Source: Microcystaceae cyanobacterium (GTDB taxonomy: Bacteria > Cyanobacteriota > Cyanobacteriia > Cyanobacteriales > Microcystaceae). From it: 64,000 bases of DNA. The translations under genes were made by a program, and so were the position numbers. Within the stretch, counting starts at the first letter, position 1. Each line of letters opens with the position of its first letter. The stretch is taken from the NCBI GenBank assembly GCA_041746575.1, contig JBGTGT010000055.1, positions 1-64,000 of the forward strand, read 5' to 3'. A model generated the notes under the pieces. That model ran no database searches and was not told the origin of the DNA. It was given only the letters and a program-made list of their open reading frames with translations. Shown piece by piece: positions 16,375 through 19,485 of the stretch.

Positions 16375-17410
16375 TTGAGTTGATGAGGAATATTATTTTT
16401 ACGCTTCGCGAATAATGGGTAAATCTAGCCAATCACTCAGTTCACCCACTAGCCAATCTAATTCAATTTCAGATAGTAAACCTTCTCCACCAATTGTAAA
16501 CTTTTTCGTTCCTGCCCAAATATTAATTTGTGGCTTAACTTCTGTCTTGCTACCTTCAGAGCTACTTTTGTATGATATCTTAGTCCGTTCTAACTTAATG
16601 ATATTATGGCGTGATGCTGGACGAGGACGTTGATAATTTAAACCAAAAAGTCGGTACTTCAAAGTGATTTTTTCTGAATTAATTTGTAACCAAACTTGTC
16701 CAAAAAGGGCGAACAAAATCCGCAAGGTGAACCAAATACCGACTCCGACATGCACTAGAGGGAAAAAAACAGCAAACCACTCTATTGTATTCATCGAATT
16801 CCCTGAACGGAGTGCCATTAGATACCAGTTTACCAAAAATCCATTCCAAACAGCTGCAAATCCAATGGTAGGCAATAACTCAAGGGTAAATCCTCGAGGC
16901 GGAATATAAATTTCCAGAAAATTATGCCTTTTATTAAGAATTACTTGAGAATCCGCGGGTTTTGTAGAAACTAAAAAAGCTTTTTTTCTGGTTTCTTCCT
17001 TTTCCAAAGCTTGTAATGCTTGATTAGCCGATTTCAATCGATGGTCAAGAGCAGGTTCAGTCATCCATTGTAACCAATCAATAAAAATAGATGAAAAGCT
17101 CACATGATTTTCAAAACAAATTTTAAGATTTCTTTGCGGCAAATCTGCCGGATGTTGTCCAGATGCTAGATAAATCAGTGTGCCCCTAAAGCGTACAGAT
17201 CAGAAGCAGGTACGGCTCGTTCTCCAAATTGTTCGGGAGGCATATAGCCGTAAGTTCCCACAACGGTTCGACGAGTTCCCTTTTCGCTAGCCGCCGCTTG
17301 CACAGAGCCAAAATCAACCAGATAGATTTGACCGACGCTATTCCCTGAACGATGGCCAGTAAAATGTTATTTGGCTTAATATCACGATGGATAATAGGAG
17401 GATATCGACT

Positions 17411-17650
17411 ATGAAGATAAGTCAGAACTTGTGAACTGTCCCGACGCTGACGCAAACGTACAGCGCGGGCTTCTTACCCAGAGACAAGCGCAGTAGTAGA
17501 TTTCTTTCGTCCTCTATTACTACGACTTACAGTCTGGCGATAAGCTTCTTGATGAAGTTGTTCATGGGGGAGACCCCCAAGACCACACTTCATCGCTTTA
17601 TCCCGCGTCCCACAGGTCAAAATTCGTAGTCCCTCATCTCTGAGATTAAT
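17411..17650 (-). ncRNA. Predicted TnpB omega/re-RNA (scaffold = tnpB 3' end plus right end; guide = flank AAGTTCTGACTTATCTTCAT)
   Basis: Inferred from the known IS200/IS605 architecture; 5' boundary approximate. Confidence 0.5.
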
Positions 17651-18748
17651 TGCGGCGTTAACATCTCTGTCGTGTTTTGTCTGGCAGTTTTCACAAGTCC
17701 AATGTCTGATATCAAGCGGCAAACTACCCACCTGATTTAAGCAAACATGACAAGTTTTTGATGAAGGGAAAAACCTATCAACTTCTTGATAAATCTTACC
17801 CTCATTTTCTGCTTTGTATTTAAGCAGGGTCATGAACATTCCCCATCCAACTTGTGCGATTGCTTTAGCTAGACAGTGGTTTTTCATCATGCCTTTTACA
17901 TTAAGATTCTCTGTCACAATGACTTGGTTTTCGTCTACTATCCTACGAGATAGCTTATGTAGATAATCTTCACGGCAGTTCGTTATTTTACGATGTACTC
18001 TAGCAACTTTTCTTCTAGACTTATTACGGTTGCTAGACCCTTCTTGGTGCAGTTGTTCATGGGGGAAACCCCCAAGACCACACTGCACCGCTTTTTGTTT
18101 TCTAGATAGTTGCTGCTGTTTTAGCTTTAAATTCTTTTCATGTTTGGCTAGGAATCTTGGATTGTCAAATTTAGAGCCATCGCTAGTAATAGCAAAATGG
18201 GTTAAACCTACATCAACACCTATCGCTTTTCCTTCTGTGGATGATTCTGGTTGTTCTTGATCATCTTTAAATAATATAGAAGCAAAGTATTGGTTACAGC
18301 AATTTTTAGATACAGTAACCGTTTTGATTGTACCCTCTATAGGTCTATGGATAATCGCTTTTATTTCTCCAATCTTTGGAAGGTTCAAGCTTTTTTCTAG
18401 AACTTTGACATTTTGAGGATACTGAATAGACTGTTTACCCTGTTTTGACTTAAACTTAGGATACCTTGCCCTACGTTCAAAAAAGTTATTAAAGGCAACT
18501 CCAAGATTTAAACAGGCTTGCTGTAAACACTGGGAATAAGTCAGTTTTAACCATTCATGCTCTTTTTTAAGAGCAGGTATTAGTTTCTTAACTTCATATC
18601 CAGACAAACCCTTCCCTGTCTCTTTATAGGTCTGATTCATCAAGTTTAGGCAATAATTCCACAGCCAACGAACATTGCCAAAACTTTGTTCTAGCGACTG
18701 TTGTTGTTCTGTATTTGGATATAGCCTTACTTTGACAATCTTTAACAT
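17474..18748 (-). CDS. tnpB: RNA-guided endonuclease TnpB with two 17-aa in-frame insertions
   Basis: KVRLYP HTH, RuvC-I GVDVG, RuvC-II VTENL, Zn finger CHVC/CENC, RuvC-III DRDVNAA. Confidence 0.95.
   Translation of the reverse strand: MLKIVKVRLYPNTEQQQSLEQSFGNVRWLWNYCLNLMNQTYKETGKGLSGYEVKKLIPALKKEHEWLKLTYSQCLQQACLNLGVAFNNFFERRARYPKFKSKQGKQSIQYPQNVKVLEKSLNLPKIGEIKAIIHRPIEGTIKTVTVSKNCCNQYFASILFKDDQEQPESSTEGKAIGVDVGLTHFAITSDGSKFDNPRFLAKHEKNLKLKQQQLSRKQKAVQCGLGGFPHEQLHQEGSSNRNKSRRKVARVHRKITNCREDYLHKLSRRIVDENQVIVTENLNVKGMMKNHCLAKAIAQVGWGMFMTLLKYKAENEGKIYQEVDRFFPSSKTCHVCLNQVGSLPLDIRHWTCENCQTKHDRDVNAAINLRDEGLRILTCGTRDKAMKCGLGGLPHEQLHQEAYRQTVSRSNRGRKKSTTALVSG
17546..17596 (-). repeat. 51-bp hairpin insertion, copy B (encodes AMKCGLGGLPHEQLHQE)
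   Basis: Outer stem GATGAAGT/ACTTCATC, inner stem TGGGGG-TCT-CCCCCA, flanking AAG duplication. Confidence 0.9.
18041..18091 (-). repeat. 51-bp hairpin insertion, copy A (encodes AVQCGLGGFPHEQLHQE)
   Basis: Outer stem GGTGCAGT/ACTGCACC, inner stem TGGGGG-TTT-CCCCCA, flanking AAG duplication; interrupts the usual SRKQK-GSSNR. Confidence 0.9.
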
Positions 18749-19485
18749 ACTTAGAGTGAATTGAATATCTTATAAAATATCTTAGCACAAGATTTTGATT
18801 GTGTGGCAAAAGTTTATTGGTCAATTTTCGGGGCATTGAACCCCTCAATTGACGAAGTCAGAGGAAGCCTCGGCTTTCCAAGCCGGAGTACCGATGACCC
18901 GCCTTTCATCCCGACGCTGACCCTATCGGGTACAGCGCGGGGCTTCTCTGCGGTGAGCTAATAGGGCTTTGGCAATTTGCTTTAACTCAGTTTCACTGAA
19001 GGTTCGTCCTGATTGAACCTGTTGTTCTAGGGAAGGCGCATCATATAGCTTTGTACCAGCGCAAAACCTCTATTCGAAAGACTTTCAGTCTCAAAGTAGT
19101 CAATATAGCGAGGAATGGCAGGATGCTCAAGCTCTTTTAAGGTCTGAGCTTCACGTTCAAACAGTTTAACCGTTTCCCATGTTAGTCCACTATTAAAAAT
19201 CAATCGTTTAACCACCACTAAATTTTGAGTTTGTCTGTCAAAAGCGAGTAGCGTCTGCTGACCCAATCCAAATCCTAGCTCTCGTCGAATTTCATAACGC
19301 CCTTGTAATACCTGCTCATTCATTAAAGCCACCTTAGAAATCTAGTAACTTTTGCTAATTTCTTTTGTTCTTATACGCAACAATTAGGCTACAAGGTTCA
19401 TCTCAATTTTTACTAAAAAGCGTAATAAGTCTTAACCATTGGAACATCCAACTTAACGAGAATTTTTTAAGTACCTATTTGAAGT

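Follow-up and report, generated by a model that had tools for sequence, protein, structure and literature searches.

A covarying hairpin repeat of cyanobacteria lies twice, in frame, within the tnpB gene of an IS200/IS605-type insertion sequence

The 64,000-nt stretch of contig JBGTGT010000055.1 analyzed here (assembly GCA_041746575.1, a Microcystaceae cyanobacterium; hereafter the window) carries an insertion sequence (IS) of the tnpB-only IS200/IS605 type, without a tnpA gene. Its tnpB open reading frame (ORF) specifies a protein of 424 amino acids that matches HTH_OrfB_IS605, OrfB_IS605 and Cas12f1-like_TNB (PF12323, PF01385 and PF07282, all over cut-offs) and contains zinc-finger CxxC pairs as well as the stretches GVDVGL (residue 177), VTENLN (278) and HDRDVNAA (359), which we take to be the RuvC motifs of TnpB. 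Within this gene the same 51-nt hairpin unit occurs twice, in one orientation and in frame, each time adding 17 codons (Table 1). With respect to a 390-aa form of the protein, the site 1 unit (AVQCGLGGFPHEQLHQE) lies between K219 and G220, whereas the site 2 unit (AMKCGLGGLPHEQLHQE) follows residue 367 and thereby stands 17 residues past NAAINL of the RuvC-III motif. A preliminary description of this locus, made from the letters of the window alone, had reported the two in-frame units and no further copy in the window. Sequence and ORF bear out the former; as to the latter, a 31-nt core of the unit matches the window only twice with up to three mismatches, and none of 100 shuffles gave two matches.

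The limits of the unit follow from relatives without it and from copies elsewhere. Insertion-free tnpB genes read CAAAAA^GGx at site 1 and GATAAA^GCy at site 2, and free copies in Moorena, Okeania, Xenococcus and Dapis start with AGCGATG, end with CATCAAGA(C/A) and have unrelated flanks. The ends of the tnpB copies (AGCG..., ...CAAGA) are common to this free subfamily, AGCGATGCAGCGCGG...GCGACTGCATCAAGAC, so that the 51 nt represent the element itself. The AAG that had been reported as duplicated at the flanks is indeed present, but it is the element's own end and not a target-site duplication, because the 3' end of the element meets an AAAG target. We do not class the unit as a miniature inverted-repeat transposable element, since its free copies lack a target duplication and no parent IS was found.

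The two units differ at five of 51 positions. As had been described, the differences fall on paired positions and the loop: one affects the middle base of the loop, and the other four constitute two compensated outer-stem pairs (alignment positions 5/46 and 8/43). When five substitutions were placed at random, all pairs were kept together with at least two double changes at a frequency of 3.3e-4 (200,000 trials). In the family as a whole the core GGTCTTGGGGG-NNN-CCCCCATGA is near-invariant and the outer stem is variable yet complementary. Twenty-five distinct copies align gap-free; GGTC(T)TGGGGG-NNN-CCCCCA(T)GA varies hardly or not at all among them, in contrast to the three hypervariable pairs that are the outermost regular ones. 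On a structure that allows for one mismatch, one bulged A and a bulge of two bases, the paired cells of this alignment amount to 93.8%, compared to 82.2% in shuffles, and both-side changes are found in 9 of 18 pairs. In 500 shuffles the paired percentage, the covariation score and the numbers of pairs or of cells with double changes were never reached, while the count of further pair types was reached by four of 500. The register of the structure is fixed by covariation at the inner pairs 11-39 and 13-37 as well (UA to CG); slid registers are 47-53% paired. Disappearance of the stem covariation in a larger alignment had been named beforehand as an outcome that would speak against the description; across the 25 distinct copies it persists and, in combination with the matches in many genomes presented below, it supports the claim of a structure-constrained repeat belonging to a dispersed cyanobacterial family. 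In two otherwise typical copies (L031:1491-1541 and L203:1501-1531) the apical loop reads GGGGGAAACCCCC instead of GGGGGTTTCCCCC (a flipped AAA), as if the tip were inverted.

Presence and absence of the units were compared among the best 120 of 7722 homologues, with an identity of 71-83% over the whole length. The commonest length in this set is 390 aa, i.e., 424 minus 2x17, and 102 of these 120 closest homologues have neither insert. The 17 amino acids A[VM][QK]CGLGG[FL]PHEQLHQE occupy site 2 in 13 proteins and site 1 in five, of which one carries six more residues within the loop; in one further protein the site 1 insert is translated in another frame (RLSVVLGVSPMNNFIKK). Among the 30 best loci of the order (151 genomes) the site 1 insert is present in 0 of 30 and the site 2 insert in 0 of the 29 that could be judged. 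The alignment with insertion-free homologues, proposed as a check in the preliminary description, confirms presence or absence of exactly 51 nt. The closest empty relative, locus L170 from the window's own family (the gene of P0002, G068:C15), lacks exactly these 51 nt at site 2. On both sides the 21-nt flanks of the window's insert equal those of L170 but for one base and show many differences from Nostoc-type filled sites; a conversion tract would need to stop exactly at the insert. Between P0011 and P0052, 400 of the 402 aligned residues are the same, yet the two proteins differ by the 17-aa and an 8-aa insert. Over ten tnpB loci with the site 2 insert (45 pairs) the insert is 96.5% identical, in comparison with 80.9% for the flanks over 300 nt upstream and 86.3% over 110 nt downstream.

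On a FastTree tree computed without the insert columns, which is unrooted and has local support values only, the 12 proteins with only the site 2 insert account for 11 state changes, at least six of which are forced by branches with support of 95 or higher, and the five with only the site 1 insert for three, at least two of them forced. The stem at site 1 exists in three variants, GATGCAGT (G104), GGTGCAGT (the window and Calothrix proteins) and GATGAAGT (P0049 and P0061); all three are perfectly complementary, and with GACGCAGT added, complementarity holds for the stem of every tnpB variant seen. A third site, after the second RuvC motif, is occupied in a tnpB family of 28-30% identity. Here, two paralogues of G050 (L015:1438-1488 and L037:1491-1541) carry an identical 44-nt hairpin at the same site in differing frames (KATQCGLGGFPHEQLRQE vs KRRSVVLGVSPMNNCVKK), one base having been lost before the hairpin and one gained after it. 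We infer a separate insertion for each of the two units and more than one insertion event within the tnpB family, and on sequence comparison we favor several recent insertions from a conserved source.

The opposite scenario involves no recent mobility: each site would have received one old hit, and the patchy distribution would result from recombination between ISs and repeated precise deletion. Indeed, the window's IS is a mosaic relative to L170 (81.5% identity over the 5' 746 nt, about 94% over the 3' 452 + 118 nt), which indicates recombination between IS lineages. The direct repeats at the junctions (AAG/AAGC) in combination with a hairpin favor deletion by slippage, G104 has the two inserts in an IS with just 80.5% identity to that of the window, and the tree lacks a root and more than local support. 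Nevertheless, we find this scenario rather improbable, given an insert that is 96.5% identical between flanks of 81-86%, window flanks of the L170 type unlike the Nostoc-type filled sites, three stem variants plus one other frame at site 1, and proteins 99.5% identical that differ by the insert.

The protein region around site 2 also holds most of the other small insertions of the family. Among the best 120 homologues, unrelated short inserts crowd positions 359-369 (LRLRSVQV, LRLRSVQVFNLSAAEG and CQSPQVGKPAHGAGS), so that the C-terminal tnpB site appears permissive, and much of the TnpB length range in the family, from 390 to 447 aa, is due to mini-inserts. Their carriers include P0011, P0027, P0028, P0043, P0062, P0077 and P0079. 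The 8-aa LRLRSVQV corresponds to 24 nt, the size of the catalogued small dispersed repeats (SDRs), and LRLRSVQVFNLSAAEG is its 16-aa form.

Outside tnpB the family is widespread. With up to three mismatches the core pattern matches 25 of the 401 genomes sampled across the phylum and, within one family that holds Nostoc-like genomes, 19 of 45; in the window's own family only one of 20 genomes has it besides the window's genome. Fifty of the 51 non-window matches listed were examined, six more lying beyond those listed: 14 are situated in tnpB and 36 elsewhere, and the tnpB share is biased upwards because the pattern was derived from a tnpB subtype. An exact scan of named records with a shorter core, not selected for tnpB, gave at least 122 stretches, from which 80 loci with 82 distinct copies were taken. 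Among the matches listed, the 82 copies originate from Nostoc, Calothrix, Rivularia, Anabaena, Moorena, Okeania, Dapis, Xenococcus, Pleurocapsa and others, most are intergenic, and 79 have no overlying tnpB frame, leaving three that do. Frames of at least 120 aa extend over a copy at 16 loci, with tnpB in three (two in opposite orientation) and other Pfam families in eight; Mob_Pre/Toprim, OprB porin, a sigma-70 factor, DUF928 and tyrosinase are among the latter, and the copy is in frame in the Mob_Pre/Toprim protein, the OprB porin and other proteins. The genes around 17 non-tnpB loci are ordinary. The earlier term 'frame-preserving' describes a property of survivors and not of the element, other copies being read in another frame or in opposite orientation.

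Many copies reside within CATTGGT-type heptamer arrays (...CATTGGTGAGCCAG...CTGGCGAACCCGAAGGGTCATT...), for instance in Nostoc, Calothrix and Anabaena. Several others interrupt another hairpin at a G-run close to its tip (CCCCCCTTTTTAAGGGG^GG), and in Moorena self-nested copies occur at TTGGGG^G; the nested copies thus delimit exactly the AG...CGT(G) subfamily, at about 44 nt. Nested loci are L072, L079, L110, L113, L120 and L124 in Moorena, L058, L059, L112 and L123 in Nostoc, and L201-L205 in G162. A general insertion into hairpins, evaluated by pairing between the flanks, was discarded as weak overall (mean duplex energy -4.9 vs -4.3 kcal/mol; one-sided p 0.03 with copies that are non-independent). 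The difference is driven by a subset (15% vs 4.5% at or below -8), and flank pairing is kept only as a feature of the nested copies.

The preliminary description had suggested that the unit targets or hitch-hikes on IS605 elements, perhaps through their single-stranded DNA (ssDNA) intermediates. Targeting would imply that the mini-element is specific for IS200/IS605 DNA, via an ssDNA intermediate or an IS200-type TnpA, and that tnpB is its preferred home. In line with this, the same two nucleotide positions recur within the tnpB family, a third site exists in the distant tnpB of L015 and L037, and divergent relatives are located just past RuvC-III in C22, C28, L106 and L064. One free copy (L023) lies about 75 nt upstream of an IS200-like tnpA, 14 of 50 examined matches would exceed the small genome share to be expected for tnpB, and the lack of target duplication is as in IS200/IS605. 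Yet those 14 hits are inflated by IS copying and by the tnpB-subtype pattern, and in the unselected core scan a tnpB frame covers just three of 82 copies. Moreover, the majority of copies reside in heptamer arrays or at a G-run of another hairpin, the C-terminal region in question is crowded with unrelated mini-inserts, the end palindromes of the IS are unrelated to the element, and the Y1 transposase family PF01797 is not found in the 99.8%-complete assembly of the window's genome. With 36 of 50 examined matches and 79 of 82 copies outside tnpB, targeting of IS605 or use of its ssDNA intermediates is not borne out, and we consider it unlikely. The idea that the hairpin forms the TnpA-binding end of an IS200 element was likewise rejected, as the other palindrome of the L023 element is unrelated.

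The other half of the suggestion, hitch-hiking, is supported in the window's own genome. In the 4.2-Mb assembly a search with the core and up to six substitutions recovers only the two tnpB units. A covariance model and nhmmer add divergent relatives only (Table 1), with apical stems that are changed with compensation (GGGG/CCCC, GTTGG/CCAAC). The genome-wide search, a second check proposed at the outset, hence confines the conserved-core type to this IS. The copy number of the IS was estimated from the contigs of four public runs, possibly the assembly's own source. In three runs the depth of the IS interior is about 3x that of the flank (88.4 vs 28.1, 37.5 vs 13.2 and 100.1 vs 32.1), and the IS-interior contigs of the four runs contain zero variant letters, which together imply about three identical IS copies, each with both hairpins. 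As the only clear copies sit in a multicopy IS and no free conserved-core copy is present, the hairpins have spread here by hitch-hiking. The occurrence of the family in this genome only in or next to tnpB, as import with insertion sequences predicts, shows hitch-hiking directly.

The IS is delimited by ends that recur on other contigs, the right end on C88 and C89 and the left end on C90 and C91. TTAG (18958-18961 in the window) precedes the left end in all three copies (C55, C90 and C91), the right flanks are mutually unrelated, and no target duplication was seen. The left and right palindromes are related to each other, both having CCCGCGCTGTAC...GTCAGCGTCGGG. Over the last 150 nt, C90 and C91 have 14 nt more in common (AAAATGCTTACTTT) upstream of TTAG, which the window's copy lacks; this reflects either similar targets or a longer form of the element. 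Whereas PF01797 gave 0 matches in the window's assembly, the same search was positive in six of 14 known control genomes, and a helper for the tnpB-only IS may be in unbinned DNA or may have been lost. A gene for a Ser/Thr protein kinase (17186-17455 and 19027-19332, minus strand) is split by the IS; its downstream part (HRDIKPNNILL...) seems frameshifted as well, and the kinase is probably a pseudogene.

Site 2 coincides with a region that is structured at the RNA level by prediction. For the last ~180 nt of 24 insertion-free relatives, RNAalifold predicts 37 pairs, 22 of them with compensatory changes, in a structure that ends at the conserved right end AGTTCAC and is without a match in Rfam. 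In characterized TnpB systems the ωRNA scaffold derives from the tnpB 3' end, and by analogy the 3' structure probably is such a scaffold. The insertion point at site 2, between alignment columns 64 and 65, belongs to an unpaired run of six bases that is flanked by a small covarying stem (columns 45-59; 17602-17616) and by long-range stems from column 66 onwards. An extra stem-loop there should, on this model, disturb the predicted fold little. A previous placement of site 2 in the apical loop of a local GATAA/TTATC hairpin has been replaced by this unpaired linker of the alignment fold. Site 1 is located in a Lys-rich linker, LSRKQK^GSxNR, past the first RuvC motif.

Table 1. Hairpin units, their host insertion sequence and divergent relatives in the same genome. 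Positions without a contig prefix refer to the window.
Feature	Position	Strand	Remarks
Hairpin unit, tnpB site 1	18041-18091	minus	51 nt, on the coding strand, in frame
Hairpin proper, site 1	18046-18089	minus	Outer stem GGTGCAGT/ACTGCACC, loop TTT
Hairpin unit, tnpB site 2	17546-17596	minus	51 nt, on the coding strand, in frame
Hairpin proper, site 2	17551-17594	minus	Outer stem GATGAAGT/ACTTCATC, loop TCT
tnpB ORF	17474..18748	minus	424 aa, intact; Pfam domains
tnpB-only IS200/IS605-type IS	17431..18957	minus	1527 bp; ends common to four contig ends of the same genome
Conserved covarying 3' structure, putative ωRNA scaffold	17431..17616	minus	From 24 insertion-free relatives
Left-end imperfect palindrome	18910..18942	minus	CCCCGCGCTGTAC...GTCAGCGTCGGG; sequence unrelated to the 51-nt element
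Right-end imperfect palindrome	17440..17469	minus	CCCGCGCTGTAC...GTCAGCGTCGGG; last stem of the 3' structure
Divergent hairpin relative	C22:18313-18364		C-terminal tail of a 412-aa tnpB paralogue, RRQCGLGVSPREATAV, directly past NAAINILKIG
Divergent hairpin relative	C28:640-691		C-terminal tnpB remnant
Divergent hairpin relative	C11:79479-79530		About 85 nt upstream of a third tnpB, on the other strand

The position of site 2 raises the question of function. The hairpins might be selected additions, either stem-loops of the ωRNA or tnpB mRNA that serve in stability, processing or delimiting, or peptide loops of TnpB. The hairpin is better conserved than its host gene, the stems are complementary in every tnpB variant seen, site 2 is within the conserved 3' structured region, and the doubly inserted IS has reached about three copies. 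In addition, the paralogues L015 and L037 read an identical hairpin in different frames, and it is thus the DNA or RNA that is kept rather than the peptide. Against this stand the absence of the inserts from most relatives (neither in 102 of the 120 closest homologues, 0 of 30 and 0 of 29 among the best loci of the order), the distance of site 1 from the ωRNA region and the mostly intergenic location of the element elsewhere, and the high conservation is explained equally well by recent insertion from a conserved source. We therefore judge a selected function very improbable. An AlphaFold2 model of the 424-aa protein with 38 close homologues has a mean pLDDT of 57, with values <50 in most of the RuvC half and both inserts, and hence allows no call on the inserts as surface loops. 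More speculatively, the hairpin could be a hyperparasite of RNA-guided transposons, which would prefer the unpaired linkers at ωRNA ends and the Lys-rich tnpB linker, be kept as a folded nucleic acid whatever the peptide, use the IS as a vehicle into genomes without the mobilizing machinery and possibly alter ωRNA processing or stability; we give this proposal a small chance only.

The reading that we favor, with a probability of roughly 65%, is that of a dispersed hairpin mini-element inserted at permissive sites of tnpB and thereafter transported as a passenger of the IS. The element is a gene-less hairpin of 44-52 nt, composed of a bulged, mismatched core and an outer stem whose sequence is free as long as it pairs. 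Copies of the 51-nt subfamily AGCG-stem-core-stem-CAAGA would have entered the tnpB-only IS at two tolerant places, where the TnpB frame stays open because the unit counts 51 nt and has no stop in frame 0. It is the subsequent passenger stage that the data show, in which the hairpins are copied along with their IS; carried in this way, they would also have travelled between genomes, including into the present one. Mobility presumably depends on a trans-acting protein that recognizes the conserved core; a bulged core with a freely varying paired outer stem would fit recognition of a folded single strand by such a protein, by analogy with REP/RAYT systems or the ends of IS200. The recurring sites are in our opinion permissive sites.

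Several observations weigh against this reading. One exact nucleotide position has been used in several lineages, which could mean real targeting; relatives occur just past RuvC-III in at least four other tnpB lineages (C22, C28, L106 and L064); and all five covariance-model loci of this genome are in or beside tnpB. Because the IS family is mosaic (81.5% vs 94%), recombination could have spread the insert, and precise loss would be possible as well, given that the junctions bear short direct repeats (AAGC at site 2); gain and loss are indistinguishable on an unrooted tree with local support only. Finally, no insertion or excision event was observed directly: in the contigs of the four runs, from which rare variants are dropped, no joint skips either hairpin.

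The family resembles several known types of small repeats. The small dispersed repeats SDR1-8 were reportedly described by Elhai et al. in 2008 for Nostoc punctiforme and relatives and are said to measure 21-27 nt. The SDRs share with the present family a very small, gene-less hairpin that is found mainly in heterocystous cyanobacteria, a presence in heptamer (STRR) arrays, nesting in other repeats, an occasional location in conserved genes, and a mobility deduced from presence and absence. In contrast, the present unit spans 44-52 nt (51 nt as inserted in tnpB, with a hairpin proper of 44 nt), forms a long imperfect stem that combines a near-invariant core with an outer part both hypervariable and compensated, and extends to Moorena, Okeania, Xenococcus and Dapis. 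The Rickettsia palindromic elements (RPEs), reportedly described by Ogata et al. in 2000, confined to Rickettsia and about 100-150 nt long, are similar in that a palindromic repeat is inserted in frame in open genes and yields a passenger peptide (here 424 vs 390 aa). They differ in that the present host gene is itself mobile, so that the repeat is multiplied by transposition of its host. RPEs are also mentioned in PMC3733652. According to that source, some elements of several repetitive extragenic palindrome (REP) families are inserted within other palindromes, and like REPs and REPINs (PMC3733652) the present hairpins are short imperfect palindromes, mostly intergenic, sometimes nested and without target duplication, and would presumably be recognized as folded single strands. 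Unlike in REP/REPIN-RAYT systems, the stem foot reads GAG.../...CG(T) or AGCG.../...CAAGA and lacks the GTAG/CGTC tag, the outer stem is freely variable, and a search for PF01797 in the window's genome revealed no RAYT/Y1 gene. The host IS, with its three TnpB Pfam domains, end palindromes, TTAG and lack of target duplication, is similar to other tnpB-only IS200/IS605 elements (IS1341-type), from which it is distinguished by the two foreign hairpins in its ORF. An Rfam scan of 17300-19100 (E up to 1) returned no family match apart from two chance matches to eukaryotic families. Three 16-nt strings of the core had no match in a full-text literature search, word searches gave no paper on this family, and the supplementary files of PMC3733652 do not contain the core strings.

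In summary, a cyanobacterial hairpin repeat is documented with its exact empty sites, and compensated changes hold its structure even inside an ORF. The tnpB-only IS tolerates two inserts of 17 codons and still multiplies. Insertions are thus tolerated at two TnpB positions and in one linker of the presumed ωRNA, which may be of use in the engineering of TnpB editors, and annotators should be aware that the length variants of TnpB (390 to about 450 aa) originate largely from mini-inserts. Overall, the transport of one small selfish DNA element by another is clear in this case, though fairly ordinary. Its interest lies in the clean covariation within an ORF, the repeated use of the same tnpB sites and the possible targeting of the ωRNA region, which, if true, would constitute a new layer of parasitism on RNA-guided transposons.

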